Made by a program: the position numbers and the translations under genes. Of a DNA stretch of 64,000 bases, positions 1-13,604 are shown one piece after another. Location of the stretch: positions 4,201 through 68,200 of the IMG/VR virus record IMGVR_UViG_3300012956_000022; one strand, 5' to 3'. This stretch comes from a virus. Under the pieces are notes generated by a model. It did no database searches. It had not been told where the DNA came from and saw only the letters and a list, made by a program, of their open reading frames with translations. Every line of letters begins with the position of its first letter. Position 1 is the first letter of the stretch.

Positions 1-6
1 CGGCAT

Positions 7-375
7 ATGAATACCATCATAAGAGACGGAGAGGGAGTGGATGTAAGCAAGGGGTATGCATCCCTGTATGTCCTGCTGCATAACAAAAGCTGCCTTGGAA
101 AGACAATTACCATAAAGCAGAAGGACATAGACTCTACCTGTTTTAAGAATCCGGAGACGATATCTGAGCTTACCACAACACTCACTGCAGTACATCCCAA
201 AGTATTTCATCACAACACCAGTCCCATACATGAGAAACTCATTGAGGGAAAGTATCTCCGGTTTTTTGTAAAAAAGGGCTATAAGTATGAACTTCATGTT
301 GATTGTACCCTGGCAACAAAAAGTTGTATTACTTTTGATGAGAACAAGGAGGAACACTTTCAGCAGTTCTTTTAA
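7..375 (+). CDS. Hypothetical protein
   Basis: 122-aa ORF co-oriented with the dUTPase; no recognisable motif. Confidence 0.6.
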   Translation: MNTIIRDGEGVDVSKGYASLYVLLHNKSCLGKTITIKQKDIDSTCFKNPETISELTTTLTAVHPKVFHHNTSPIHEKLIEGKYLRFFVKKGYKYELHVDCTLATKSCITFDENKEEHFQQFF

Positions 376-399
376 TTTGTCAAACAAGAAAGTAAGAAT

Positions 400-906
400 A
401 TGACCAGAATCCCCATTAAGTACAGATTGGAAATAGGTGCATCGGCTCCCTGTTATGAAACAGAGGGTGCAGCAGGCTTTGATTTAAAAGCACATAGTTT
501 CAAAAAACTTTTCAGTGGCAAAAAAGAGGTTGACCTCAACGAAAACCTTGCCCACTCTCTTGCAAACGGCTATATAAAACTTCGTCCCAATGAAAGGGTT
601 CTTATAGGTACCGGCATCTATGTACAGATACCGCAGGGATATCAGATAGAAATCCGTTCAAGAAGCGGCATGTCTCTGAATAAAGGCCTTGTGGTTCTTA
701 ATCAGCCGGGTACCATAGATTCCGACTACAGGGGAGAGATAATGATTATTTTGTTTAATTCCAATGCTTTTCTTTCCGAGATATATCTCGGGGACAGGGT
801 TGCACAGGGTGTTGTCATGCAGGCTCCGAGAGCTGAATTCTTTGAAGAGGGTGAGCTTGAAGCTACACTCAGAGGCACAGGAGGTTTTGGAAGTACCGGA
901 AAATAA
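400..906 (+). CDS. dut: Trimeric dUTPase
   Basis: Shows the family motifs AGFDL, RSRSG, GTIDSDYRGEI, GDRVAQ and the C-terminal RGTGGFGSTG. Confidence 0.97.
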   Translation: MTRIPIKYRLEIGASAPCYETEGAAGFDLKAHSFKKLFSGKKEVDLNENLAHSLANGYIKLRPNERVLIGTGIYVQIPQGYQIEIRSRSGMSLNKGLVVLNQPGTIDSDYRGEIMIILFNSNAFLSEIYLGDRVAQGVVMQAPRAEFFEEGELEATLRGTGGFGSTGK

Positions 907-938
907 GTTGATTTCATTTTGTGTATGATTTTTAATTG

Positions 939-966
939 TAGGGAGACTCTTTGGTCTCCCTATTTT
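939..966 (+). terminator. Intrinsic terminator after dut
   Basis: Perfect 9-bp stem TAGGGAGAC-tctttg-GTCTCCCTA followed by TTTT. Confidence 0.75.
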
Positions 967-987
967 CACCACCTTAAATTTACTATT

Positions 988-1755
988 ATGTTTGAAAGAA
1001 AAAATGCAATCATTCTCCTGCTGATCATTCTTGTCATACTGCTGTTGCTTAAAGCCTGTGACCAGAAAGAAACAATAGAGACACAGGCCAACCTGATTAC
1101 GGCAATGGGAGACACGCTTCATGTACATACCAACTCCAAAGGACAGGAGGTAGCCAGCATAGAGGCACTGCAGGCCCAGTCTGTAAAATATTTCCTTACC
1201 ATACAGACACAGGATGCCACCATACAGAAGCTCCAGGAAGAGGTTAAGAGAAACAAGGACAGGATAAACAAGACCGGTTCAGTTACCGTAGTAACCTCCA
1301 CCACCACCGTAGAGGGTAAAAATGTCACTACCATCACTTCAGTGGATACCGTTTACAAGAATGTAGGGATAGAAACATATCCTGTCTATGAGGCATCCAT
1401 AAAACTCGGGAAGAGAAACGACTCCGCCTACTGGGTGAACAGCTATATCAAGGCATCCAAAGACAGTATCAGTCTGAGTGCAAAAATAGAGAATGCCTAC
1501 ACTGTTGTCATAGGAATGCAGAAAAGAAAAGGGTTCAAGAACCTGTTTAAGAAGAAGGTGCCGATAGTGGAGGTGACCAATGAAAACCCTTATACTTCCA
1601 CAAAGACACTGAGGGCTTATGTTACAAAATCACCAAGACCAAAAAGGTTTGGAATTGGTTTCAATGTAGGCTATGGAATTATCCTGGATAAGAAACCCGT
1701 TTTCCGGCCCTACATAGGAATAGGCCTTCAGTACAATATCATAGAATTTCTTTAA
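988..1755 (+). CDS. Putative spanin-like lipoprotein / outer-membrane lysis protein
   Basis: Start taken at ATG 988, after the terminator. Hydrophobic signal with lipobox-like LLKAC, a coiled coil, and C-terminal amphipathic beta strands RFGIGFNVGYG...YIGIGLQYNIIEF. Confidence 0.55.
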   Translation: MFERKNAIILLLIILVILLLLKACDQKETIETQANLITAMGDTLHVHTNSKGQEVASIEALQAQSVKYFLTIQTQDATIQKLQEEVKRNKDRINKTGSVTVVTSTTTVEGKNVTTITSVDTVYKNVGIETYPVYEASIKLGKRNDSAYWVNSYIKASKDSISLSAKIENAYTVVIGMQKRKGFKNLFKKKVPIVEVTNENPYTSTKTLRAYVTKSPRPKRFGIGFNVGYGIILDKKPVFRPYIGIGLQYNIIEFL

Positions 1756-1771
1756 CGATAAAACAAAAATC

Positions 1772-1990
1772 ATGACACCACCTGAAAAGACAACGGAAGA
1801 GGAACTGAAAGACAAGTTCATCCTGGTCAATGACTACTCTGAGACGGAATACAGATTGCACTGTTACAAAGTATTTCTTAAAGAGGATGAAGACGCAGAA
1901 GACTGGCTGTCAGAAAATACCTCACACCATTTGTCTAACTGTGACTGGAGTTTGCATGACAGCAGACCATTCATATTCTTTCACGACTAA
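1772..1990 (+). CDS. Small acidic hypothetical protein
   Basis: 72-aa ORF with an A-rich leader and operon-like spacing. Confidence 0.6.
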   Translation: MTPPEKTTEEELKDKFILVNDYSETEYRLHCYKVFLKEDEDAEDWLSENTSHHLSNCDWSLHDSRPFIFFHD

Positions 1991-2005
1991 TACAATTATC
2001 TTACC

Positions 2006-2464
2006 ATGAGTACAGAAATATTTATGAGGGGAAGAGGCATCTCTCCCTACGTTTTCCCGGGAATGAAGTTTAAGCCGGTGTATGACAAAGCAGAAAGGGA
2101 CGCAAAGATAATCGAGTACATCAAGCTCAATTCAACAAGGTTTTTCGGAATATCCTTTGATACTGCAACAAGAAGGACGAGAAAGCATAAGTACATCTAT
2201 ACAAGGTTCATGATAAGCAACTTTCTTCGTGTAAATAAAGTGAGCACGTTCAGGGAGATAGCTGATCTTTTCAACAAAAGTGACCACACTACGATCATCA
2301 ACTCTGTAAAGTCACATTCTGCACTTTACGATACAAATGATTTGTACAGGGACATCTACAGTTCATTCAATGAACACATGAGCAGTCTTTTTGATGTTGT
2401 TTCTTCAGATACCAAGGTATACCCTGAAAAGAAGAGCACCATACAACACAAGATTGCTTTGTAA
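2006..2464 (+). CDS. DnaA C-terminal (domain IV)-like HTH DNA-binding protein
   Basis: Motif TFREIADLFNKSDHTTIINSVK, preceded by TRKHKYIYTRFMI, matches the DnaA domain IV signature. No AAA+ domain. Confidence 0.75.
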   Translation: MSTEIFMRGRGISPYVFPGMKFKPVYDKAERDAKIIEYIKLNSTRFFGISFDTATRRTRKHKYIYTRFMISNFLRVNKVSTFREIADLFNKSDHTTIINSVKSHSALYDTNDLYRDIYSSFNEHMSSLFDVVSSDTKVYPEKKSTIQHKIAL

Positions 2465-2479
2465 AATAAAAAATCCATA

Positions 2480-2655
2480 CACCATAAGTAGAATCTGGGT
2501 TCTCCCAGCAAACTATGTGACTCTACTCTACCAAATTTGAAATATAATTTGGTAGTTGGGTGCTAACTGCAACCTCTTACAGTAAAAGGACTGGCGACTA
2601 AACCAGTATCCTGGACACTTTATCCTGCTATCTTACGGTAGCAGGCTCTAAGGTG
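2480..2655 (+). ncRNA. Candidate structured non-coding RNA / leader
   Basis: Non-coding interval with at least five stems: 2495-2508, 2488-2527, 2528-2555, 2587-2612 and 2624-2645. Closed by CACC/GGTG. Confidence 0.5.
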
Positions 2656-2684
2656 ATTTTATTCACAATTAAACTTTAAACTTT

Positions 2685-3446
2685 ATGAACGATAAAATTA
2701 TCCAGATAGGTGGAAAATCCTATGAAAAATGTAGTATAGTTATGCTTTCTACCGAAGAAAAAATAACATTTAATCATACAAACACTGAAATTGAATCATG
2801 TTCAAGTTTAGAAAATAACTTAAAGGAGTTAAAAAAAGGAAATGTAACAAGAAATCCTTTTAAAGTTCCAATTACAATTATTGAAAATGGTAAAATGATT
2901 AATTCACTTGAGAGATGTGATTTTCCTTCTAAAGAAGATAAATTTTATCATCTTTACATACTCTCTGATGAAGAGATAAAAGAAGGTGATTGGTGTTTTG
3001 ATTTAGATTTTAAAAGAGTATTTTATTGTTCTGATTCAAGTAGAGAGAAATACCTTAATAGTAAAAAAATCATAACTACAACAGATGAAAGTTTAGTTCT
3101 AAAGGAGAATATTTCTAAGTCCACAGAAGAATGTTGGAAATATACTTCATTACCAAGACCTTCAGATGATTTTATCACAGCTTTTGTTAAAGCTCAAGGA
3201 AAGATAATTGAAGTGTTGGTTGAGTATGAATTTGGTTCGATAGAAGAATCTTATTTTAATGATAATGGAGATGAAGTATTACCTATCAAACTAAAAGTAT
3301 CAAAAGATAATACCATTACAATCAAACCTATTCAGGAAGAAAAGACTTCTTGGAGTAGAGAAGAAGTTAAAAAGTTGATGGAAAGTTGGATGGTATTACC
3401 TAAAACACCTGAAAGTATTAATAACTGGATAAAAGAAAACTTATAG
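2685..3446 (+). CDS. Hypothetical protein, Bacteroidota phage family (HLYILSDEEIKEGDW motif)
   Basis: 253-aa AT-rich ORF. The motif EEIKEGDW...KKIITTTD is recalled from Bacteroidota phage proteins. Confidence 0.75.
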   Translation: MNDKIIQIGGKSYEKCSIVMLSTEEKITFNHTNTEIESCSSLENNLKELKKGNVTRNPFKVPITIIENGKMINSLERCDFPSKEDKFYHLYILSDEEIKEGDWCFDLDFKRVFYCSDSSREKYLNSKKIITTTDESLVLKENISKSTEECWKYTSLPRPSDDFITAFVKAQGKIIEVLVEYEFGSIEESYFNDNGDEVLPIKLKVSKDNTITIKPIQEEKTSWSREEVKKLMESWMVLPKTPESINNWIKENL

Positions 3447-3448
3447 TA

Positions 3449-3919
3449 ATGAATACACCAATTGTTTTTGAAATAGCACAGTTGCTAAAAGAAAAAGGGT
3501 TTGATACACCTACTTTTTATTATTATGAAAATGAAAAGTTAATAGAACCTTACTTAGAAAATGGAAGTAGTACAGATACTGAATTTAGAGTTGACTTATC
3601 AGATTTACAAGAATATTTTGGTAAGTGGTCTAATAAGGTGTCAGCACCAACCATTGCAGAAATAGTAATGTGGTTGTATGAGAAACATGGTATTTGGATT
3701 AGTGTTGAGCTTTGCATAGTAGGTTCAGATGAATGGGAATATGGTTATAAAGTATTTTACCTTCCTAAAGAATTTGAAAATGCTAAAAGAAGAGCTATTC
3801 ATTTAGCAACAAAAGAGTCTTTTCAAGAAGGAATGAGTTCTTATTCTGGTGCATGGCATACACCAACAGAAGCTTATAAAGCAGCAATTGAATATACTTT
3901 AAAGAACCTAATACAATAA
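3449..3919 (+). CDS. Hypothetical protein, Bacteroidota phage family
   Basis: Pattern FEIAQLLKEKGF...SAPT...WLYEKHGIWI...EAYKAAIEY; tightly coupled to its neighbours. Confidence 0.8.
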   Translation: MNTPIVFEIAQLLKEKGFDTPTFYYYENEKLIEPYLENGSSTDTEFRVDLSDLQEYFGKWSNKVSAPTIAEIVMWLYEKHGIWISVELCIVGSDEWEYGYKVFYLPKEFENAKRRAIHLATKESFQEGMSSYSGAWHTPTEAYKAAIEYTLKNLIQ

Positions 3920-3922
3920 GTC

Positions 3923-4153
3923 ATGAAAGAAATCTTTATCAGAGGCAGTTTTTCTAAGATAGATGCAGACAACAGTTACCCGGCTACTTTCAGAAATCTA
4001 TTGGGCTTTCTTGTTTGCAATAACGGAAGAGATTGCTTTGCCAAGTTTCAGGGAAATATCTGGATGATAACCAGAGAAGGTGCATGGGAAAGAGTCTGTA
4101 GAAACCTTTCAGATCTTACCTATAACGAGTACTTAAAATTGTCTCTATCATAA
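3923..4153 (+). CDS. Hypothetical protein
   Basis: 76-aa ORF starting 3 nt after the previous stop. Confidence 0.65.
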   Translation: MKEIFIRGSFSKIDADNSYPATFRNLLGFLVCNNGRDCFAKFQGNIWMITREGAWERVCRNLSDLTYNEYLKLSLS

Positions 4154-4355
4154 AATATAAATCATAATTTTTAATCTGTAATTTTATAGGTGTTAAGGAT
4201 AAAGTGCCTTACTATTGTGGTTATAGAGTGATGTCAATTGAAGCATCTACTGAAGGTTCACTTCTCTTTTATGATATATTTTCTATCTCTCCTATAAGAA
4301 TAGGTAAAATAGTACTGACAGAAGAAGATTATTTAACTTTAAAAACAATAATAAA

Positions 4356-4553
4356 ATGTTAAAAACAGAATTAAATATAGAAAGTTTTGTAAAACTTTCT
4401 CATGAGGATATATCCCGCATTCATGAGGCAGCTTATGCTGATGCAGTAATGAAACTTATGGATATTTCAGATTCATCTATTAATGAATTTGACCTTAATT
4501 TCTCTTACGAAATCATTTGCAAAGTAAGTATTAAACCTAAACCTAAATACTAA
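4356..4553 (+). CDS. Hypothetical protein
   Basis: 65-aa ORF with a TAATG overlap to the next gene. Confidence 0.65.
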   Translation: MLKTELNIESFVKLSHEDISRIHEAAYADAVMKLMDISDSSINEFDLNFSYEIICKVSIKPKPKY

Positions 4554-4927
4554 TGCCACAATTTCACGAAACCGGATATGGAAGAAAATTTCTTGAGGGA
4601 GATTTTCCTGATATGGTTAAACAGCTTACCAAAATAGCTGCTGCTTTAGAGGTAAAAGAGACAAAGAAGAATATTGATGAATTATATTTAGCTCTTTATG
4701 AAGAGTTAGATGTCTGGTATGTTTCTTTGCCTTTTATTATAGTACATAAAATTACAGGTATCAATCCTTTAGACTATCCTGAGCTTATAAAAATACCAGA
4801 AGATGAAGAAGACAAAGGAACTTCCAGAGAAGAGGCTATTGATTTAGCAAGAGATTCATGGAATAATTGTTCACTACAAGAAAAAATAGAATATCATGAA
4901 AGATACAAAGATGAGAGGCATTACTAA
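4553..4927 (+). CDS. Hypothetical protein
   Basis: 124-aa ORF, translationally coupled. Confidence 0.7.
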   Translation: MPQFHETGYGRKFLEGDFPDMVKQLTKIAAALEVKETKKNIDELYLALYEELDVWYVSLPFIIVHKITGINPLDYPELIKIPEDEEDKGTSREEAIDLARDSWNNCSLQEKIEYHERYKDERHY

Positions 4928-5120
4928 GAATTTTACCATGACAAGTATAAAAAGGTATCTGAAAGATCCTAATAGCTGTCCTCAATGTCAATCTCAAAGT
5001 CTCGTAGTAGATGAAGAATTTACAGAAGAGACAAAAGGGAGGGTAATCAGATGTCAGAGTTGTAATATTACTTTTTATGAGGTGTTTAAATTAATTTATA
5101 TCGAAAAAATACCAGAATGA
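4896..5120 (+). CDS. Small zinc-ribbon protein
   Basis: CPQC...CQSC pair; the true start may be a downstream ATG. Confidence 0.65.
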   Translation: MKDTKMRGITKNFTMTSIKRYLKDPNSCPQCQSQSLVVDEEFTEETKGRVIRCQSCNITFYEVFKLIYIEKIPE

Positions 5121-5154
5121 GGAATTCAAGATTAATCCAAAATGTATACCCAAA

Positions 5155-5358
5155 ATGAACAGTTATAAATTAAATGGCATGGCAGGACACTATTTCAGAC
5201 AGACCGTCTGCAAACACCTGAAAATCAGCCACACTGAAATCTATAAGACTCTGGAAAAAATCTTTCTGGATAATGTTGGAAATGTCATTATCGAAACCAA
5301 AGACGGTAAAAAATACCGGTTAACACTTACTGAGCATGAGAACACAAATCAGCAATAA
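5155..5358 (+). CDS. Hypothetical protein
   Basis: 67-aa ORF. Confidence 0.6.
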   Translation: MNSYKLNGMAGHYFRQTVCKHLKISHTEIYKTLEKIFLDNVGNVIIETKDGKKYRLTLTEHENTNQQ

Positions 5359-5923
5359 CAGACAGCAAACCGAAAAAGATGCAGAAATAGATGCCAGAGT
5401 GCTCCACCTTGCCAATCATGTGCTTTGCCTGCTGGGCAAAAGGATACTCCCTATCTACTTCTATTCACATAATCCTGAAGAGATGAACAGATGGCAGCAT
5501 AATATCTGCAGGCAGGCTCATATTCTTTGCTATATGTATCTCTACCTGTGGTTCGGAAAAGACTATGATTTGTCCTTTTACGAATCCATCTTTGAGGAAA
5601 CTGTCACAAAAAGCAGGTATGACCACAGTTGGGTGTTTCTTCAGCATAAAAGAGATGACAGTCTGATGTATCTGTGTGATGTGGCAAGAGTTTCAGAACA
5701 CATAGGATTAAAAAGAACAGCTTCCAATAATCCTGAATGTTTTCTTAAGGGCAGCCGGGAAATAACAGAAGAGAGAAGAAGGATAGATGTTGAAAACGTA
5801 TACATGGTTTCCAATGAGTACTACACAGGGAAAACAGTGCAGGAGATTTTCGAGGAAGTTACCATGCTTCTTTATCATGCAAGGGCTAACCCGGGATTTG
5901 TACACGATTTATATAATCAATAA
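5336..5923 (+). CDS. Hypothetical protein, possible Cys-His-Asp (transglutaminase/papain-like) fold
   Basis: Spacing of ICRQAH...DHSWVFL...YLCDV resembles a catalytic triad (inference). Confidence 0.6.
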   Translation: MRTQISNNRQQTEKDAEIDARVLHLANHVLCLLGKRILPIYFYSHNPEEMNRWQHNICRQAHILCYMYLYLWFGKDYDLSFYESIFEETVTKSRYDHSWVFLQHKRDDSLMYLCDVARVSEHIGLKRTASNNPECFLKGSREITEERRRIDVENVYMVSNEYYTGKTVQEIFEEVTMLLYHARANPGFVHDLYNQ

Positions 5924-5935
5924 AAAACAACTAAA

Positions 5936-6685
5936 ATGAAAGAAGAAAAACAAATTCACAAAAGCTACTTTGATGCTCTTCCAAATGAGATAAAAATGGA
6001 GTTTGCAAATGCAGTTCAGGACCTTAACAATCAGATTGTAAAAGTGGCTGATGAAGAGGGCATCCATGTAGCAATCAGTTCTGTCCATAAATTCGTGGAT
6101 GATGAGGTGGAGAAGGCGAAAATAAAATACAGCGAGGAAGGTAAGGCAATCTCCTGCAAAAGGGGCTGCAGTTTCTGCTGTTACATACATGTGGACATAT
6201 CTCCTCCTGAGGCCATGAGAGTGCTCTCTAAGATAAATCTTACAGAAAAACAGGTAGAGCATCTGGAGAGACAGAAAGGATATAACCTGAACAACTGGAC
6301 AGAGTTGCCTTATGCTCACAGAAAGTGCGTATTCCTTGAGAATGGAGAATGCAGTGTCTATGAAGACAGACCACTCTCCTGCAGAAAATACATGGTGGTG
6401 AATGAGCCTGAAATATGCAACACGGAACATGAGAATAATGTAACCACAGTCGCTGCAGCAGGAATTGTGGAAGCCATGTGTATGTCCTCTGCACTTGCCT
6501 TCAGTTCGGCCAGTATGGCACCCCTTCTTTTGACAGCCTGGAACAGCAAACCGGAAGAGATAAAAAAAAGAAGTGAAGAGTATCAGCAAAGAGTCAACAA
6601 AGATAAAAACAAGGAAAATGGATATGACGAAACAGGAGGAGCTGAAAGTGATGCTCCTGAAACAGAAACCGAGGTACTGTCATAA
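5936..6685 (+). CDS. YkgJ/FliB-like cysteine-cluster (CxxxCxxCC, Zn/Fe-S) protein
   Basis: Signature CKRGCSFCC...CVFLENGECSVYEDRPLSCRKY. Confidence 0.85.
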   Translation: MKEEKQIHKSYFDALPNEIKMEFANAVQDLNNQIVKVADEEGIHVAISSVHKFVDDEVEKAKIKYSEEGKAISCKRGCSFCCYIHVDISPPEAMRVLSKINLTEKQVEHLERQKGYNLNNWTELPYAHRKCVFLENGECSVYEDRPLSCRKYMVVNEPEICNTEHENNVTTVAAAGIVEAMCMSSALAFSSASMAPLLLTAWNSKPEEIKKRSEEYQQRVNKDKNKENGYDETGGAESDAPETETEVLS

Positions 6686-6839
6686 AAGCAAGAATATCTA
6701 CCTGCTTGTTTCTGCATGCAGGATAAAGATAAACGGAGAGTACAGGGATGGCTATATCTATGTAAATGAAAATCTCCCTGAAGAGGTCTTTGTAAGAGAA
6801 AAGCAGGATTTTGAAGATAATTTCGTGATGTTGGACTAA
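6618..6839 (+). CDS. DUF1653-like small protein
   Basis: Pattern RYCHKSKNIY...YIY...VFVREKQDFEDNF; start taken at ATG 6618. Confidence 0.6.
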   Translation: MDMTKQEELKVMLLKQKPRYCHKSKNIYLLVSACRIKINGEYRDGYIYVNENLPEEVFVREKQDFEDNFVMLD

Positions 6840-6960
6840 AGTTGGGTGTTTGGCGAAGAAGCCGAAACCAAAAGTTAAATCGAAGTACAAAACTTAAAAA
6901 TTAGAACAATATGTCAAACGAAGAACAAAACGGCTTTTTTGCCAAACCCGTGTTAGCACC
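6837..6960 (-). mobile_element. attC-like site 1 (outer core degenerate: TAAA instead of TAAC)
   Basis: Arms GGGTGTTTGGCGAAGAAGCCG (6844-6864) and CGGCTTTTTTGCCAAACCC (6931-6949), then core GTTAGCACC (6952-6960). Confidence 0.75.
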
Positions 6961-7180
6961 AGTTAATTTTGATGCTATTCACGAAGCACGTAGAAATTTC
7001 ATCTATTCAAATAATAGATACCCAACTGTAATAGTTATGCACCCTGCCGATGGTGAAAAATTCATTGACTTAATGCACAAAGAATTTGGTTATTGTGCTA
7101 TGCCTAATTTGATGAAATTTCAAGGGATGCAGATGATAAGGTCATTCGATGTCGAAGAGGGCAAGTGGTGTCTTTATTAA
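6911..7180 (+). CDS. Cassette A gene, hypothetical protein
   Basis: 89-aa ORF. Its ATG lies in the attC1 loop and its stop is 2 nt before GGTGCTAAC. Confidence 0.7.
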   Translation: MSNEEQNGFFAKPVLAPVNFDAIHEARRNFIYSNNRYPTVIVMHPADGEKFIDLMHKEFGYCAMPNLMKFQGMQMIRSFDVEEGKWCLY

Positions 7181-7182
7181 TT

Positions 7183-7318
7183 GGTGCTAACGGTTTGCGG
7201 CTTGTAGCTGAAAGGGATTTAGAAGCACAATATTTCAACTTTGCACTACTGCCGATTAGAACCATAAATGATGAATGTAGCATATCTGCCCTTTTTGCTA
7301 CAAACCGCTGTTACCTGC
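7183..7318 (-). mobile_element. attC-like site 2
   Basis: GGTGCTAAC-GGTTT-GCGGCTTGTAGC-TGAAAGGG ... CCCTTTTT-GCTACAAACCGC-T-GTTACCTGC. Confidence 0.85.
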
Positions 7319-7355
7319 TGGGCGGATTATCAGTAGGAAATTTAAAAACAACAAA

Positions 7356-7889
7356 ATGAATAAGTACAAAGAAATTGAATTTGGGTTCGGAAATATCGAA
7401 TCAGCAGTAAAAGAATTGAAAAGCCATAATGAATTAGTTTGCGGCTCATTTAATGGTCAAATGTTATATTCTGACATTGACGATTTAGATTCAGCTTATG
7501 TAAAAATTACAGGTAAAACAAAAGCCGAATGTGACGAAGCCGAAAGAATTAAACACGAAGAATATGAAGAGCAACAAAGAAAGCACAAAGAAGCTATACC
7601 CAAACTTACAAAAGAATGGATTGAAAAAGGCAATACCATTTTAGACGAAAAGTATCGTGAATTATGGGCTAAATGTGTTCCTATCAGACTTGGTGATTTG
7701 TATCAAGGAATGGAATTAGGTAACTGCCTTGAAATAGTTGAACAGCTAAACAATGGTAAAACTGTTGAAGAAGTAAAACCACTAATTGAAAATCAAGGTC
7801 ATTCTGGAATGTCTTTTGGCTTGGTTTGTTCAATGATAAAATCTTTCTGTGATAGAGGCGAGGAATTTGTCAATTATGCACGGTCGTAG
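7356..7889 (+). CDS. Cassette B gene, conserved hypothetical phage protein
   Basis: 177-aa ORF with a QGHSGMSF motif. Bracketed by GTTACCTGC (7310) and its complement GCAGGTAAC (7894). Confidence 0.85.
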   Translation: MNKYKEIEFGFGNIESAVKELKSHNELVCGSFNGQMLYSDIDDLDSAYVKITGKTKAECDEAERIKHEEYEEQQRKHKEAIPKLTKEWIEKGNTILDEKYRELWAKCVPIRLGDLYQGMELGNCLEIVEQLNNGKTVEEVKPLIENQGHSGMSFGLVCSMIKSFCDRGEEFVNYARS

Positions 7890-7893
7890 CCTT

Positions 7894-8110
7894 GCAGGTA
7901 ACGCTTAACAGATTTATTTAGTTTTAAAAGTATTATTATGACAGACTTACAAAAAAAAGCAAAAGAAATTTATAGAAGAATGACAAGTTATGCTGACTAT
8001 TCAGAAATGAATGGCATAAGTAAAAAATGGATTTTAGGGCAAATAGAAGCAGGACTTGAAGAATACCACAAGTCCGAACTTTTAAAATTGAATAAATCTG
8101 ATGTTATAAG
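7894..8110 (-). mobile_element. attC-like site 3 with a protein-coding loop
   Basis: GCAGGTAAC, then 23-bp arms 7909-7931 and 8078-8100 with two G.T wobbles, a 146-nt loop, and core GTTATAAG (8103-8110). Confidence 0.8.
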
Positions 8111-8189
8111 TTCGGTTTCTGAATCAGGCATACGTCTTGATTTGGATAAAATATTAAATGCTAAAGATACATTTAAAAAGATATTATAA
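7938..8189 (+). CDS. Cassette C gene, encoded largely within the attC3 loop
   Basis: 83-aa ORF that reads through the hairpin arm and core as LKLNKSDVISS. Confidence 0.7.
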   Translation: MTDLQKKAKEIYRRMTSYADYSEMNGISKKWILGQIEAGLEEYHKSELLKLNKSDVISSVSESGIRLDLDKILNAKDTFKKIL

Positions 8190-8238
8190 ACAGAAACTGA
8201 CTTATGTTATACGCTGGGCGGTGTTGAAAACGAAAATT

Positions 8239-8484
8239 ATGAATACATACGAAATTGAAAGAAAATTGGGAGACAAAGCAGACAAATGGGAACTGCATAG
8301 TTTACAAACAGAAAACAGGGAATTAAAAAGCCATGTTAACGAACTTGAAAGAAAGGTTGGATATTTAGAAAGCACGAATATTAATAGATACTATGCACTT
8401 GAAAGGCTTTTTAATATGATGGCAGAACACCCCCAATTTTCTGACTTGCAAAACGAAATATATCAATTGAAAGGCAGTTTGTAG
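8239..8484 (+). CDS. Cassette D gene, coiled-coil protein
   Basis: ATG 8239 after an A-rich leader. Shares its flanks (GCTGGGCGG at the 5' side, TAGCCTTGC at the 3' side) with cassette B. Confidence 0.7.
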   Translation: MNTYEIERKLGDKADKWELHSLQTENRELKSHVNELERKVGYLESTNINRYYALERLFNMMAEHPQFSDLQNEIYQLKGSL

Positions 8485-8494
8485 CCTTGCTGCT

Positions 8495-8716
8495 AAAAGT
8501 AAATACCCTGCATATTTTGTTGGTTGGGTTGGTTTTAATTGCTCTTATAGTGGAAAATGGTTTGGTGGCTTTGCAGGAGAAACAAACACCAAAATAGGAA
8601 CGGTAAGAGATTACCAAACTGAAGCAATAAACAATGTGGCAAAGCAAGTTGAAAAAATGAAAGGTGTAATATTCCAAAACAACCCTTATTATGAATTGGA
8701 ACTACCACCAAACAGT
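8495..8716 (+). pseudogene. Internal fragment of a Dam-like DNA adenine methyltransferase
   Basis: Start-less frame KYPAYFVGWVGFNCSYSGKWFGGFAG...RDYQTEAINNVAKQ...KGVIF...YYELELPPNS. It lacks the N-terminal SAM-binding motif and stops just before the expected DPPY. Confidence 0.7.
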
Positions 8717-8717
8717 A

Positions 8718-11700
8718 CTATTTTAACGCATCAGAGCTTTTAACCCGCTTCAGCATATCCTGATAGGACTCTCCTTTTTTCTTTGCCGGTATTTTCTGAC
8801 TGACTATCTTATTGATTTCATCAGGATCTTCTATGCTTTCTTTAAGCTGTCCTCTCAGTTTTGCTCTTATCTGGGAAATTTCATATTTGGCCTTGTGCTC
8901 ATCACTCCATGCCCATTTGTCTATAGGCAGTGGAACAAACTGTCTTTCCATCTGTGTTTCAAATCCGAAAGAAAGCGGGTTTGCTATCAGCGGAGGTAAG
9001 AATGTTTTGAGTGCCTGATTTACCACCTTATGCTCTCCGGCATGCTCCCCTGTAAGTATCACATCTTTTCCTTCCATGAACTCCTCGAAGTTCTTACCCA
9101 GTTTCAGACAATCAGAAAACAGCCTGATGATGGACATATCCGTTATCGTCCTGTGCATTTCATACAGGTTCAGGTACTGCACGAGGGAGGAGGATATCTG
9201 CGTGAACCGGTTAATGAAGAAATTATGTGCCTTCCTTCTTGCAGAGTCCTTATCATCATCGTCATCCCAGGCAAGCATTTTTGTCATAAGCATGAGTGCA
9301 AGAAGGGCATACATGACAGCCATATCCTGAATGTTGGCTTTCCAGTTTGCCATATCCTGTCTGGTAAATTCCCCTGTAATCTGAAGCCTGTCTCCGGCAA
9401 CCTTTCCTGAATCGGTTTCTATTATCTTACCTTTGCCTAAAATTCTCCCTGCAAGGTTTACAGGCATTCCTGCCATTTTTCTGAAAAGCATCTTATTCAT
9501 GAAAATCATCTCCTCCAGGAAATCCATGGGGCTTGTGGCATCACTGTACATTTTGGAAAAGGCTGCACCGGCAATACCTCCAACCAGTAATCCTGCCGGC
9601 CCTATGGTAAAGGCAAGTGCACCTCCTCCAATCATGGCACCTGCTCCGGGAGTAAGACTTCTGTATCTTCCCTTGAACCCTTTTGTTCCGGTAAGTATAT
9701 TATCCTGCTTTACTGCAAATCTCTTATAGAACTCTCTTGGAAGCCAGGTCTTGAACATCATCAGCAGGGTTCCTAAATGGGTGGACTTGGCCATCATGCC
9801 TGACAGCTGGTCATAATCACCGTGTGTGTCCTTTATCACCGCACTGAGCTTTGTCCTGAAATCAAGGTACTCCTGTCCTGTATTGTCTTCCCAGTTGTCT
9901 ATGTTCTTCTGTACCCCCCTGTATTCATCTTTCAGCTTGAAACCATGCTCTGTCAGTTCCATTGCATCCCATACGTTACCCTTTACTCCGTTATTGTCCT
10001 CTATTTCCGTATCCCTCAGTATGGCAACCATCAGAGGTATCTGGTTATAGGTCTCTGTCTTTGACTGTATAAAGAACGGAGCAAGTTTGCTGACACCTGA
10101 AATACCAGATTTTACGGATGCCTTCTGAAGCTCATTTTTAGAGTCCTGAAGCACATCCCAGTTTTCCATCATTCTCTGTGCAAGAATTGCCCTTGCAAGA
10201 CCACGGCCTTTCCCAAGCCTTTTCATGCTGTCTGAGTACATCAGGTCAGATAATGTCACCGTATCTATATACTCTGAAGGAAACCACATCCCTGAGGCTG
10301 CTATGGCGGCATTTGCAATCTGCCCTTCCACCACGTTTGTAATACCTGAGCTTACATTATAAGCCATCCCCTTAAAACGTATAAAGTTCAGCAGCATATC
10401 CACTATGCCGGATACAGACATATCTGCACCCAGTCTTTTGCTCATCTTTCTCACCTCCTCAAGGTCATCCTGTGAAAGGTTTGGATCTTCCATGAGCCTG
10501 TCAAGACGTTGCTTTATTTTTTTCTCTTCCTCTGTAAAGAGTTTTCCATCCCACTTTCTTCCCTTGGTGATGTATCCTATTGTTCTGGATAGACGGTCTT
10601 CAGCATCCTTGTCAGGTGTTTCTACATCCCTTTTCAGAAATCCATACTGCTTTCTCAGGTCTTTTTCTCCAAGCACCACCCTTCTGAACCAATTGTCAAA
10701 CTGTTTGTTTGCATGTGTCCTGAAACCATCATATCTTGTCTTTCCATACAGTGCACTATTGTATATCTCATCACCGGTGTTCTGTGTAGCCACATTTCTT
10801 ATCTGTTCGTAGTGCCTTTTTATAAGCTCCATGAACGGCAACACCTGCTGTCTTGCAGAATATTCAGCAGCCATTTTGGTATGCAGTTTTAATATCATAG
10901 GAAGGTCAAAGGATTGTTCTTTGGCTATCTGATGCTGTGTGTATGCCCATATTATCTTTCCAACAGGAACTCTCTTGTCAGGATACTGTTCCAGCAGACT
11001 GTCTTTGGTCAGGCCGGGAATGTATCTGTCAAGCAAGCTCACCATGGCATCCGTATTCATTCTTGTGAGATTGATATGTGTCCCTCTTGTGATTTTAGGT
11101 ATTCTCCTCTGGGTAAGAGATATGTAATCCTGAAGAAACTCCATCGCACTAAGATTGAATGCATCCTGTATCTTATTGATGTTGTTTTTCAGGAAAGAAT
11201 CATTGACAGTGTATTCAGGAACTCCTGTCACGGGGTTCACTTTAGCATAACTCATCTGGTCCTGTATCCTCACTCCAATCACAGTCTTGAACCAGTCTAT
11301 GAATCTTCTGTAGGACTCGGAAAGTATCTGAAGCAGGGTGATGTCAGGAGTGTTCAGCAAATACTCCGCAAAGGTCTTCTTCTGAAAAGGTACCGTAGTG
11401 TCCAGGTTCAGTCTTTTATCCTCAGGACTGTACTGTTCCCGTATCATGGTAGTAGCCTCCTTGGCTATATCATAAAACTTCATGAGCACATCGTTGTCTT
11501 CTATGGCCTCATACTTTGAATCATAGTAGCCAAAGTCAGCTCCGGTTTCCCTGTTGTTACGCAAAGGAATCTGTATATTGTATCTCAGTTTCGGAAAGTA
11601 TTCAGTTTCAAAACCAACTCTGGCAGGTGCATCTGTCCTGATATGTTCAGCAGTCAGAAAAGGATTGTTTTCTGCTTCCCATACCTTTATTCTGGCAATC

Positions 11701-13604
11701 TCAAAAGTGTTGAGTGCCGCAGTACTGTTTACACCGGCATCCTCCATCACCTGCTTTATATACTGGCTTTTCTGCACCTTATATTCCTGAAACTTCTGAA
11801 GCTGGCTCTCCACTATCCTTTCAAAATACTTTTCTCCCACTATGCTTTTTACATACTTTTCATACTCCTCTATCTCTCCCTGTGTATAGTTGAATTTTCC
11901 ATCTGACAAATCCTGAAAATCAGGATGGCCGGTTACTGCAGAAAGTCTGGCAGGATCTATGGTCTCCGAGTTTTCCCTAAGCCATTTGTTTCTTTTGGCA
12001 ACAGCTTTTCTTGTCTCTGAAATCACATCATTGATATCAAGCCACTCTACTGCCTTTTTCATGTCAGACCTGAACTTGGACTCCATGCTGCCCTTTATCT
12101 GAAACCACTCATGAGAAAACTTGTCGCAGATGTTGCTGAGAAACTCTCCTTTTTTAGTTACCTGCCTCATCCAGTCAAAGGATATACCATTTAATCCAAT
12201 TATACCAAGCTTGTACTTACCTCCCTCAAGCTTCTCCACCTCCTTGACTACATCCTCCATTATGTCATCCATTCTTGCAGTAAGGTTCTCTGAATAGGAA
12301 AGAGATTCCCTCATGGCATCTTCCAGGACTTTTCTTGCCAGCTGCGGCAATGTACCGTTGTGGGAAAATATCCCTGAAGTGATGTCCATTATCATCATGT
12401 CTATCCAAGTGGCATCAGCAAGGCCTTTTCCCGCCCCTGTTATCTCCGCATAGGTGAATTTCTTGCCATCATACATCTTTTGTATCATGGTGTTGTTGTT
12501 GTAGACATCTTCCAGTGCCTTTTCTTCCTGGTGTCTCAACTGGTTTTCCATCAGCCTTACCCTGTCTGCCCAATCTGCAAATGACTTTATCATTCCTTCT
12601 GACAGCAGGAACCTGCCCTCATGGAACATGTCCTCCTTTGAAAAGATAGGGTGGTTTTCAGCATCCTCCAGCCTGAAGTTGTTCATGGCATTAATGAACT
12701 GTATGATATTCCTCGCTTCTGCAAGGTCTTCAGGGTGTTTTGACTGTATAAGCTTCTCCAGCCTGCCTATTTCCTTCTCTATATAGGGGGCTATAATATG
12801 GGCACTCTTTACAGTCTGTTTTTTCAGTTCATTTATCTCTTCACGAAGTCCCGGCTCACCTTTCTCTTCGTTACCATAAATGTATTCCTGAAGGGTATTC
12901 TTTTCTCTGATGGCCTCCTCATAGGCAACCTCATCTCCACGCAGCTTTGGCAATGCCGCATTTATTGCAGACAATCTTTTGTATGCTGTACTCAGCAGTT
13001 TTTCTTTCAGCAACACAAGATGTGCAAGTCCCTTTCTTTCAGGTGCCTTTGGATCTTCCTGTGACATAAAGTCCTCTGAGTCTTCTTCTGCACTCTCTTC
13101 CTCTGTATCCTGAAACAGTCTGAAGAATACCTCACTTCCGTCAGTAGGCTGCTGAACCTCCTCTCCGTCTTCCACATCACCGGCAGCATAAAAGAACCCG
13201 TCCTCTATACCCATCTCCCTTTCCTTAGCCGCCTTTTCCGCAGCTCCCTCTTCCTTTATCTGCTCTTCAGCATCCATTGCAAGTTTCTCATACTCTACCT
13301 GATTGAGTATCCCAAGCTGTGCCCTTGTGGGTTTTATGGACACATAGACATTTCCACTTTGACTGACTTCTACATAAAACACCTGCCCTACAGCTACAGA
13401 GCTGTTTATGCTCTTATTCAGATGGTCAGCAAGTGCTTTGGCTATTCCCGGCAATTGTGTCCTACTTGTAATTCTGGACTTTATATTTGGAGGAGGAAGT
13501 ATCACCTGTATGTAATCACTGTCCTTCGTGTAGGAAAGCCAGGGCCTGTTACCTACTGCACTCTCAACTGCCGTCTTTATTCCCGTATCACAATATTTTG
13601 ACAT
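8718..13604 (-). CDS. Giant virion cargo/ejection protein (crAss-like)
   Basis: 1628 aa, helical, with C-terminal hydrophobic segments; lies immediately downstream of the virion RNAP as in crAss-like phages. Confidence 0.8.
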   Translation of the reverse strand: MSKYCDTGIKTAVESAVGNRPWLSYTKDSDYIQVILPPPNIKSRITSRTQLPGIAKALADHLNKSINSSVAVGQVFYVEVSQSGNVYVSIKPTRAQLGILNQVEYEKLAMDAEEQIKEEGAAEKAAKEREMGIEDGFFYAAGDVEDGEEVQQPTDGSEVFFRLFQDTEEESAEEDSEDFMSQEDPKAPERKGLAHLVLLKEKLLSTAYKRLSAINAALPKLRGDEVAYEEAIREKNTLQEYIYGNEEKGEPGLREEINELKKQTVKSAHIIAPYIEKEIGRLEKLIQSKHPEDLAEARNIIQFINAMNNFRLEDAENHPIFSKEDMFHEGRFLLSEGMIKSFADWADRVRLMENQLRHQEEKALEDVYNNNTMIQKMYDGKKFTYAEITGAGKGLADATWIDMMIMDITSGIFSHNGTLPQLARKVLEDAMRESLSYSENLTARMDDIMEDVVKEVEKLEGGKYKLGIIGLNGISFDWMRQVTKKGEFLSNICDKFSHEWFQIKGSMESKFRSDMKKAVEWLDINDVISETRKAVAKRNKWLRENSETIDPARLSAVTGHPDFQDLSDGKFNYTQGEIEEYEKYVKSIVGEKYFERIVESQLQKFQEYKVQKSQYIKQVMEDAGVNSTAALNTFEIARIKVWEAENNPFLTAEHIRTDAPARVGFETEYFPKLRYNIQIPLRNNRETGADFGYYDSKYEAIEDNDVLMKFYDIAKEATTMIREQYSPEDKRLNLDTTVPFQKKTFAEYLLNTPDITLLQILSESYRRFIDWFKTVIGVRIQDQMSYAKVNPVTGVPEYTVNDSFLKNNINKIQDAFNLSAMEFLQDYISLTQRRIPKITRGTHINLTRMNTDAMVSLLDRYIPGLTKDSLLEQYPDKRVPVGKIIWAYTQHQIAKEQSFDLPMILKLHTKMAAEYSARQQVLPFMELIKRHYEQIRNVATQNTGDEIYNSALYGKTRYDGFRTHANKQFDNWFRRVVLGEKDLRKQYGFLKRDVETPDKDAEDRLSRTIGYITKGRKWDGKLFTEEEKKIKQRLDRLMEDPNLSQDDLEEVRKMSKRLGADMSVSGIVDMLLNFIRFKGMAYNVSSGITNVVEGQIANAAIAASGMWFPSEYIDTVTLSDLMYSDSMKRLGKGRGLARAILAQRMMENWDVLQDSKNELQKASVKSGISGVSKLAPFFIQSKTETYNQIPLMVAILRDTEIEDNNGVKGNVWDAMELTEHGFKLKDEYRGVQKNIDNWEDNTGQEYLDFRTKLSAVIKDTHGDYDQLSGMMAKSTHLGTLLMMFKTWLPREFYKRFAVKQDNILTGTKGFKGRYRSLTPGAGAMIGGGALAFTIGPAGLLVGGIAGAAFSKMYSDATSPMDFLEEMIFMNKMLFRKMAGMPVNLAGRILGKGKIIETDSGKVAGDRLQITGEFTRQDMANWKANIQDMAVMYALLALMLMTKMLAWDDDDDKDSARRKAHNFFINRFTQISSSLVQYLNLYEMHRTITDMSIIRLFSDCLKLGKNFEEFMEGKDVILTGEHAGEHKVVNQALKTFLPPLIANPLSFGFETQMERQFVPLPIDKWAWSDEHKAKYEISQIRAKLRGQLKESIEDPDEINKIVSQKIPAKKKGESYQDMLKRVKSSDALK

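Follow-up and report, generated by a model that had tools for sequence, protein, structure and literature searches.

Putative attC-type hairpins with start codons in their loops: a probable small cassette array in a tailed phage of Bacteroidota

Introduction

What is a row of hairpins doing between small phage genes when each hairpin has a start codon in its loop? The question is raised by positions 6840-8496 of a 64-kb stretch of DNA, here called the window, taken from the 68.2-kb, 72% complete IMG/VR record IMGVR_UViG_3300012956_000022. This block holds three imperfect hairpins (sites 1, 2, and 3) with TAAC...GTTA boxes, and from the ATG in each loop (6911, 7268, and 7938, respectively) an open reading frame (ORF) crosses the 3' arm and the box. 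The window belongs to a tailed phage of a Bacteroidota host; PHROGs names its portal, large terminase, and major head protein at E ≤ 1e-160.

A textbook integron cassette is a promoterless gene followed by its recombination site, attC. A sequence-only reading of the window had taken the three hairpins for attC sites and had proposed that they double as translation-initiation and coding sequence; ribosomes might then melt the hairpin in the mRNA and couple expression along the array. The hairpins, arms, loop ATGs, ORFs through the arm, and peptide words that it described all lie where it placed them, and GAAG(T/C)ACAA and ATTAGAAC(A/C)AT, the loop words it gave as common to sites 1 and 2, are present in the sequence.

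Our answer, which we hold at a probability of roughly 70%, is that the block is a small, partly decayed cassette array of integron type that does not bring its own integrase (CALIN, for clusters of attC sites without an integron-integrase), whose units would be bounded at TAA|C and would carry the hairpin ahead of the gene. Three sites lie within 1.3 kb, as in a CALIN. A complete integron, that is, an IntI with its extra domain plus attI, was found neither in the window record, which has none, nor in the relatives, where the recombinase falls below the cut-off.

The Site Family

Single-strand DNA folds give all three hairpins (Table 1). Their + strand z-scores are modest for site 1 (-1.9) and site 2 (-1.4) and reach -3.6 for site 3, for which 0 of 200 shuffles fold as well. 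An AAC-ending inverse box and a GTT-starting box, as in attC, occur at 7188/7310 and at 7899/8103; the left box of site 1 is degenerate, with TAAA at 6837-6840 instead of TAAC. When the 64-kb window was scanned for structure only (TAAC, spacer, 14-nt stem, GTTA), sites 2 and 3 were returned and nothing else, site 3 with a stem score of 13/14. The same scan gave 421 matches in related loci versus 2 in 524 kb of shuffled sequence. Rfam (window positions 1-12000, E up to 5) and ARAGORN returned nothing at the sites.

The 20-mer of the site 1 arm recurs exactly in at least 119 viral (IMG/VR) contigs and, in a scan of one genome per species, in at least 120 genome contigs, which are nearly all from Bacteroidota and include isolates. 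The 3' arm of site 2 with the next 25-mer is exact in 35 viral contigs. In Flavobacterium phage mumin, a stretch 74% identical to site 1 lies ahead of a methyltransferase (MTase) gene and takes in the start of that gene; the MTase site of cultured Flavobacterium phages likewise has an ATG in its loop.

Alignment of site 1 with 84 unique copies, 85 sites in total, provided the input for a covariance model of these type-1 sites. In their common plan, a variable flank is followed by TAAC and a spacer of 5-6 nt; the stem, of 19 bp, includes two G.T wobbles that are conserved and encloses a loop of ~45 to 95 nt; and 1-2 nt separate its return strand from GTTA, after which comes another variable flank. 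Pairing is kept in 94.6% of the cells of the alignment. Covariation is found in the inner six pairs, where 125 cells are changed on both sides, a number reached by 0 of 500 shuffles. In classical attC, extrahelical bases and an unpaired central spacer set the choice of strand; here the internal loop is asymmetric (5-6 versus 1-2 nt), and clear extrahelical bases were not seen.

Site 1 receives 122.6 bits from the model and site 2 receives 51.2 bits (E 2.5e-11); the model misses site 3. Applied to 156 loci, it gave 323 and 263 matches at E ≤ 0.01, some of which are reverse-strand shadows. Sites form same-strand arrays of up to ~20, with ~20 in 8 kb in L156 and 13 model sites in L096 (L-numbers label the related viral and genome loci that we retrieved). 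By length the scanner sites fall into two groups, ~75-86 nt and 116-125 nt, and the short-loop copies in the alignment carry no loop ATG.

Site 3 represents another type, found as four copies in three other viral contigs (two in L161, one each in L162 and L163). Its plan is TAACG, a 5-nt spacer, a 23- to 24-bp stem whose inner part covaries in three versions, a ~150-nt loop that opens with ATG, the return arm, AT, and GTTA. A body of ~110 nt follows, the two ends of which pair, and then TAAC and the next hairpin. On this full plan, most of a small protein is encoded within the hairpin loop.

Members of the family also occur in L002 (LR756502, a 642-kb uncultured phage), at 2509-2597 and 2921-3034 with 34 and 63 bits. 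The site 2 arm and the cassette start are present in this phage too, at 87% identity.

Cassette Boundaries

If these are cassettes, where does one end and the next begin? In 215 unique intervals between consecutive sites, the last 12 nt ahead of TAAC were set against the first 12 nt behind the preceding GTTA. On average 8.0 of the 12 positions are paired, with a mode of 10; the controls, namely the flank of the same hairpin and random starts, gave 4.04 and 4.05, respectively (Wilcoxon p 2e-30). Each cassette's start thus pairs with its own end, which implies a circular form in which the two ends meet. The counterparts in the window are 6952-6967 with 7176-7191 and 7310-7323 with 7889-7902. The same pairing accounts for a hairpin at 8107-8121/8191-8204 that was considered as a "site 4" and rejected: its arms are the two ends of one very short cassette body, paired with each other, and the covariance-model match there is not significant (12.6 bits, E 0.24).

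The positions at which related arrays part company were taken from 157 loci compared all-vs-all by megablast (250 alignments of at least 250 nt). The unique right ends of shared blocks fall within -1..+5 nt of TAAC in 80 of 227 cases, 36 of them exactly there, and within the same distance of GTTA in none of the 227; the random expectation is 2.9%. These right ends are free of the site-selection bias that affects left ends, of which 84 of 194 are at TAAC. The other block ends fall within gradually diverging genes.

Individual cases look the same. One MTase cassette ending ...CACCTAAC is followed by a hairpin in L008 and by three unrelated sequences in L010, L051, and L074. All five copies of the ORF177 cassette of the window end ...TAGCCTTGCAGGTAACG and then continue, directly after TAACG, into five different hairpins. 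Two cultured-phage records have shared blocks that are 99.5-99.9% identical and differ by whole units at TAAC|. Neighbours of shared cassettes were compared in 7 pairs.

Breakpoints at TAA|C make the unit a hairpin plus its downstream gene, and they rule out the classical layout, which we also considered and in which GTTA would be the crossover and each hairpin part of the unit of the gene before it. The interpretation needs correction on this point: the hairpin would belong to the gene that starts in it and not to the preceding one, with the crossover probably at TAAC and not at GTTA. Judged from these comparisons, TAA|C on the gene strand would be the classical G|TT crossover on the other strand. 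With the crossover at TAAC, the start codon does not lie across a recombination junction.

Gene Polarity and Folding Strand

Which way do the genes face? Of the 227 cassettes in viral loci, 205 have their gene on the strand of the site model and 1 on the opposite strand (16 are ambiguous and 5 have no ORF). The 58 cassettes in genome loci divide into 10 on that strand, 40 opposite, 4 ambiguous, and 4 with no ORF. ORFs opposite to the site-model strand, as in the bacterial arrays, give the classical gene-then-attC order. The classical arrangement, with the gene upstream of and sense to its own attC, is not that of the viral cassettes, in 205 of which the gene starts in the hairpin and lies downstream of it, nor that of any unit of the window; here the attC is on the - strand with the gene antisense to it, and the hairpin precedes the gene to which it belongs.

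Regardless of gene direction, the conserved G.T wobbles are found on one and the same DNA strand. A wobble arm that keeps its strand in both settings argues that the selected fold is that of single-stranded DNA, namely the wobble-bearing strand (the classical bottom strand), and not of mRNA.

Start Codons in the Loops

Are the loop ATGs more than a by-product of the sequence around them? A loop ATG whose frame is open through GTTAG occurs in 81 of the 84 unique viral type-1 sites, versus 23 of 115 bacterial copies. Of these 81 ORFs, 55 run on for at least 40 codons, 11 reach the end of the locus, and 15 stop early. The 20 nt before the ATG are 57% A, and the main leaders in viral type-1 loops are MIDRITEQPFCQTRVS (25 copies), MLIEEQNGNFAKPVL (12), and MSNEEQNGFFAKPVL (12, including the one in the window).

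A broader count points the same way. Out of 352 scanner sites, 194 precede a frame that is open for at least 40 codons past the box, and that frame starts in the loop in 141 cases and downstream in 43 (median +31 nt). GenBank starts the MTase gene of Flavobacterium phage mumin at the loop ATG.

Two frames, FAKPVL and FCQTRVS, pass through the same site 1-type arm, so the arm is conserved as DNA and not as peptide. Cassettes and loops are matched: all 13 MTase cassettes beginning GTGGCAGTAC, among the first 46 entries examined, follow a frame-B loop, the type that gives them the right frame.

ORF83, which begins in site 3, has 30 database homologues. The segment LNKSDVISS, encoded by arm and box, is invariant in all 21 aligned homologues. 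Their loop-encoded N-termini fall into unrelated groups while arms and body are kept, and the C-termini are either the 24 residues seen in the window or Cys-rich tails, with N- and C-terminal modules combined independently.

Comparative evidence thus supports the proposal that the putative recombination site also serves as start signal and coding sequence: the counts of loop ATGs and of long frames, the mumin annotation, and the invariant LNKSDVISS all fit a site that would carry the start codon and the first codons of its gene. The sequence-only reading had named an absence of conserved frames as an outcome that would refute it, and this outcome did not occur; the relatives of site 1, however, use two frames. 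Its further suggestion that new coding sequence is captured in the loop holds in part: the loop is a place of coding change, judging by the three hairpin interiors of the ORF177 cassette and the unrelated loop-encoded N-termini of the ORF83 family.

Cassette Contents

Bounded units encode 223 unique proteins in 190 clusters, and representatives of 150 of these clusters were scanned against Pfam. Fourteen of the 150 are DNA-modification enzymes (9 N6_N4_Mtase, 2 C5 methylases, 2 D12 methylases, and 1 Mom), a few match YopX, Rad52, or other families, and ~130 have no Pfam family at 1e-5. Cassettes this rich in MTases point to a shuffling of genes that counter host restriction.

Recombinases and Bacterial Arrays

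What could move such units? A tyrosine recombinase was first met next to the sites in two viral records. Homologues of this Xer-like enzyme lie in 14 of 120 genome loci of 8 kb and in 5 of 155 viral loci. Its match to the integron-integrase model is confined to two stretches, as expected of a recombinase without the IntI-specific insert. Behind the recombinase gene of six genome loci, at a distance of ~120 nt, lies a TATATAC-like motif directly adjoining GTTAG and a cassette-type extension. The motif sits where, on the gene strand, the array has its TAAC| end, and similar TATATAC words lie past the last TAAC of phage arrays; the motif is attI-like. Flavobacterium silvisoli RD-2-33 contig20 (L208) has all elements in a row: the recombinase (580 aa), a TATATAC-type motif, and then at least 8 sites.

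Several further observations concern these arrays. The bacterial array-linked recombinases (L208:301-2043; also L202, L222, L198, and L232) are longer than those of phages, for example 580 aa versus 285-298 aa, and the extra length is a long N-terminal extension. The first cassette after recombinase and motif in L208 (2144-3673) encodes a 509-aa protein in which a reverse-transcriptase-like YRDD motif can be seen by eye. Bacterial type-1 sites in L208, L252, L212, L199, L198, L186, L222, and L202 have a near-identical 85-nt loop across distant Bacteroidota. This loop contains an internal direct repeat, with CCACAAATGT..GCGGAG occurring twice, which may bind a protein; phage type-1 copies have the start-codon loop in its place. 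Finally, L159 (356-2079), L011, L147, and L179 share a module of a type-1 site, an N6_N4 methyltransferase with the leader MIDRITEQPFCQTRV, and, 25-60 nt past TAAC and in the same direction, an Xer-like recombinase.

Interpretation and Alternatives

We propose that the mobile unit, read on the + strand, would consist of the C of TAAC, spacer, 5' arm, loop, 3' arm, GTTA box, gene, end extension, and TAA. The variable loop of an attC would, in the phage form, have become an A-rich leader with a start codon, and the 3' arm and box would encode the next 10 to 15 residues. Units may move as circles by means of a tyrosine recombinase supplied in trans, either an enzyme of the host or the Xer-like enzyme that adjoins arrays; the + strand would be the one that folds, and the loop ATGs would be used. 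Covariation, cassette end pairing, breakpoints, and bacterial arrays beside a recombinase all agree with the earlier identification of the hairpins as attC-type sites, which we adopt for all three as the probable reading.

Several results weigh against the cassette array. A search of the 68.2-kb record with PF00589 (tyrosine recombinase) gave no match, and none was found in three of five other array-bearing viral records, those three being 96-100% complete. The array-linked recombinase is below all curated cut-offs: its best model is XerA (206 bits versus 220), the integron-integrase model TIGR02249 gives 155 bits versus a cut-off of 265, and its closest solved relative is 4A8E, an archaeal XerA-like protein. 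No circular cassettes or empty sites were observed. Because the loci were chosen by one conserved 20- or 25-mer, the left ends of shared blocks are biased to the edge of the conserved site. Hybrid hairpins (L010, L019, and L071), swapped interiors, and the shuffling of N- and C-terminal modules indicate that homologous recombination acts within sites too, and this could account for part of the mosaicism. The array in the window also looks inactive, with its left box mutated, one hairpin deleted, and its right end at a gene fragment.

Much of this would suit an explanation in which the hairpins are regulatory RNA modules, with the start codon in the loop, that spread and shuffle genes by homologous recombination only, in the manner of the promoter-stem-loop cassettes of T4-type phages, and involve no site-specific recombinase. 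It would account for the start codon and A-rich leader, for wobbles that in phages are G.U-compatible on the sense strand, for hybrid and half sites (15 of 120 type-1 matches have no 5' arm), and for the swapping of hairpin interiors and the shuffling of modules at the conserved arm; a recombinase is missing from most phage records, and the cassette proteins include a Rad52-family member. We nevertheless consider it unlikely, since it leaves unexplained both the cassette-specific, compensated pairing of start with end and the base-precise TAAC junctions with unrelated DNA. Bacterial sites, moreover, are antisense to the genes and yet have their wobbles on the same DNA strand, they adjoin a tyrosine recombinase and an attI-like motif, and a site from a related phage is reported to have been recombined by IntI1 (PMC9892861).

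Still less probable, in our view, is that the sites are true attC whose loop ATGs and frames are untranslated by-products of an A/T-rich loop, the genes starting downstream and the open frames reflecting gene callers and data selection. The two frames through one arm would fit this, as would the 15 of 84 loop ORFs that stop within 40 codons, the unit 2 gene with its own ATG and a varying upstream frame, and the origin of the ORF83 homologues in a protein database, which holds open frames only. It does not sit well with the excess of open loop frames in viral over bacterial copies, with the 141 of 194 long frames that have no ATG between loop and gene body, with the matching of cassettes to the loop type that gives the right frame, or with loop parts of up to ~47 codons that are open in AT-rich DNA in five independent site 3 copies. 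A last idea, that the hairpins are inverted repeats that arose by chance or plain terminators separating small phage genes, might draw on the fold z-scores of sites 1 and 2, which are unremarkable by themselves, but model scores, covariation, hundreds of relatives, and the near-empty scan of shuffled sequence refute it. Chance origin is excluded, and we give the explanation as a whole practically no credence.

The Array in the Window and Its Surroundings

The coordinates of the array are collected in Table 1. It sits between a backbone ORF ending at 6839 and the gene of a 1628-aa protein, and its G+C content is lower, 30-37% versus 42-46%. Four small + strand ORFs, with imperfect hairpins between them, make up the block; ORF89, ORF177, ORF83, and ORF81 have no family in Pfam or PHROGs.

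Table 1. Sites, genes, and unit boundaries of the cassette array and the adjoining gene fragment (window coordinates)
Feature	Position	Strand	Description
Site 1	6840-6955	+	Arms 6848-6864/6931-6947, 17 nt, 88% complementary; loop 6865-6930; GTTA 6952-6955
ORF89	6911-7180	+	89 aa, ..NGFFAKPVLA..; from site 1 loop ATG through arm and box
Unit 1 body start	6952-6967	+	GTTA box and extension; complementary to 7176-7191 (16 nt, 94%)
Unit 1 end	7176-7191	+	Extension 7176-7187 with ORF89 stop; TAAC 7188-7191; probable crossover TAA|C
Site 2	7188-7313	+	TAAC 7188-7191; arms 7197-7216/7289-7308, 20 nt, 85% complementary; GTTA 7310-7313
Upstream ORF	7268-7336	+	22 aa; starts in site 2 loop
ORF177	7356-7889	+	Gene of unit 2 (7191-7901); own ATG 46 nt past GTTA box
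Unit 2 end	7887-7902	+	Extension 7887-7898, opening with ORF177 stop TAG; TAAC 7899-7902
Site 3	7899-8106	+	TAAC 7899-7902; arms 7909-7931/8078-8100, 23 nt, 91% complementary; 146-nt coding loop; GTTA 8103-8106
Unit 3	7902-8205	+	Site 3, ORF83, and short body
ORF83	7938-8189	+	83 aa, ..LKLNKSDVISS..; ~47 codons in loop, 13 in arm and box (..LLKLNKSDVISS), 24 in body
Unit 3 body	8107-8204	+	Start 8107-8121 pairs with end 8191-8204; fold z -3.3
Unit 4	8206-8496	+	Without hairpin; GTTA 8206-8209; ORF81 8239-8484; end extension 8482-8493; TAA 8494-8496
Dam-type MTase fragment	8497-8727	+	~230 nt; flanks array, not a cassette; 70-82% identity to phage Dam genes

Unit 1 consists of site 1 and ORF89 (6840-7190) and has the mutated left box, TAAA. 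An intact version is found in L077, where a full-length ORF89 homologue (94% identity) lies behind an intact site. In unit 2, the end at 7889-7902 is complementary to the start at 7310-7323 over 14 nt (86%). Homologues of the ORF177 cassette in L156, L125, L145, and L140 are 67-97% identical. The hairpin in the window is the long-loop version; its interior takes other forms, one in L156, L145, and L140 and another in L125, on an unchanged outer stem and ahead of the same gene. The 22-aa upstream ORF is present only in loci with the same loop type (L150, L152, and L153), and the remaining versions of the cassette differ in both loop and frame; the 22-aa frame is not conserved. In the short-loop version of L156 (11600-11700), the TGA of the loop-started upstream ORF overlaps the ATG of ORF177 (ATGA), a layout typical of translational coupling; a 1-nt difference between this region and window positions 7310-7358 alters the frames.

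Relatives of unit 3 have the same body end, followed by TAAC and the next hairpin. In the window the GTTA at 8206-8209 abuts the end of unit 3 (via T-GTTA and the unit 4 extension), so the stem-loop of unit 4 has been deleted. The array ends on the right as TAA|A at 8494-8496, next to a D12/Dam-type fragment (..YPAYFVGWVGFNCSYSGKWFGG..) that has no start, matches phrog_56 weakly, and is cut again at ~8727, where the - strand gene of 1628 aa ends. The block probably came from a phage of a different Bacteroidota lineage and has probably lost part of its mobility since.

The - strand of the window carries giant ORFs of 3460 and 1628 aa; from gene sizes of this kind we presume the phage to be crAss-like. 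At 2554-2567, where the G+C content drops, there is a solitary AGTTGGGTGCTAAC that resembles a cassette end plus TAAC box, and the 9-mer AGTTGGGTG is common to this region and the left edge of the array at 6840. From 2600 to 5200 the G+C content is 27-33% over 2.6 kb, and no hairpin sites were found there. The region may be a remnant of another acquired block. Covariance-model matches at 2621-2742 and elsewhere in the window are weak (E 0.27 to 9).

Four sequencing runs, all in the form of contigs, were also compared with the window. Parts without cover, depths, joints with short sides (20-36 nt, likeness under 95), and the habitat labels of runs holding few of the words were kept out of the evidence. 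The ORF177 cassette and the conserved parts of the sites recur in run contigs from several samples, and contigs from other samples leave the window sequence at 7903/7905. In a wider view, positions 7310-7903 (the ORF177 cassette, about one quarter of the stretch searched) occur in many runs from different studies; among the runs with this cassette are X1, X2, X19, and X20, two of which are RNA libraries. A 594-nt contig from RNA library X19 spans 7334-7905, which is no proof of transcription.

Comparison with Known Systems

How much of this has been described before? A review counts Bacteroidota among the phyla with integrons (PMC8618304). Qi, Rajabal, Ghaly, Tetu, and Gillings (2023) surveyed 10,705 phage genomes and found 17 CALINs, each with at least 2 predicted attC; Polaribacter phage P12002L has one of them, with two methyltransferase genes, and 5 of 6 phage attC sites, one of them from P12002L, recombined with attI1 under IntI1 (PMC9892861). 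According to the passages compared, those CALINs share with the present arrays the attC-type hairpins between small genes of lytic phages, the lack of an integrase, the DNA methyltransferase cassettes, and, for P12002L, a host in Flavobacteriia; the same passages mention no large family, 10- to 20-site arrays, polarity, start in the loop, or Bacteroidota platform (PMC9892861). Our model gives weak matches in P12002L (25.9, 22.4, and 17.4 bits) in the same layout between MTase genes, matches that are tied to the published sites by layout and position only.

Classical attC sites and cassettes, in the parts of the source compared, agree with those described here in having an imperfect hairpin with AAC/GTT boxes whose structure is kept and whose sequence varies, a start complementary to the cassette's own inverse box, and a crossover at G|TT of one box (PMC4889954). 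Arrays of very diverse small genes are likewise classical (here 223 proteins in 190 clusters), and the bacterial relatives have the gene-then-attC order beside a tyrosine recombinase. The phage arrays differ in that their genes run antisense to the attC and have their start within it. Other differences are a paired extension past the boxes of ~12 nt, the asymmetric spacers (5-6 versus 1-2 nt), and a neighbouring recombinase that is Xer-like and has no IntI insert.

Two other systems invite comparison. T4-type promoter-stem-loops act as homology patches that carry promoters. Like the present sites, they are conserved stem-loops between small accessory phage genes and mark the borders of gene insertion, deletion, and replacement, as described in the parts compared of Arbiol et al. 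2010 (PMC2839356). Here, in contrast, unit ends pair, breakpoints are base-precise at the box, and sites lie beside a bacterial tyrosine recombinase. In the reverse integrons of Treponema, the recombinase gene and the top strand of the array run the same way, as they do in L208, L222, L198, L232, and L186. The term "reverse integron" refers to the orientation of intI and not to genes antisense to their own attC, and we know of no description of a start codon inside the site in that system. A literature search, largely outside subscription journals and so no proof of absence, found no account of the inverted polarity, of start codons in attC loops, of the size of the family, or of a Bacteroidota platform with an Xer-like recombinase.

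Conclusions

What do these arrays mean for phages and their hosts? On a wider reading, which we offer tentatively and rate somewhat short of an even chance, Bacteroidota and their phages would share an integron-like system run by Xer-like recombinases without the IntI domain. In it, phages would hold a distinct population of inverted cassettes, whose attC loop would work as a portable module for translation start and as an N-terminal leader; in the site 3 type the loop would contain most of a gene.

The scale alone is of interest: attC-type arrays are common in phages of one phylum, judging by the contigs that hold the site 1 word. One site family serves genes of either polarity, the classical one in bacteria and the inverted one in phages, and in the inverted form the loop carries a start codon and sometimes tens of codons, so that a recombination site acting as an expression signal becomes directly testable. 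Flavobacterium phages mumin and filifjonk and the isolates Flavobacterium silvisoli and Daejeonella oryzae offer experimental systems. The recombinase beside the bacterial arrays is not a canonical IntI, which bears on the origin of IntI from Xer-like enzymes. Both the expression of cassettes and the origin of new ones are open questions for integrons. If the reading given here is true, every cassette would bring its own start signal, and phages would shuffle methyltransferase and accessory genes as plug-in units.

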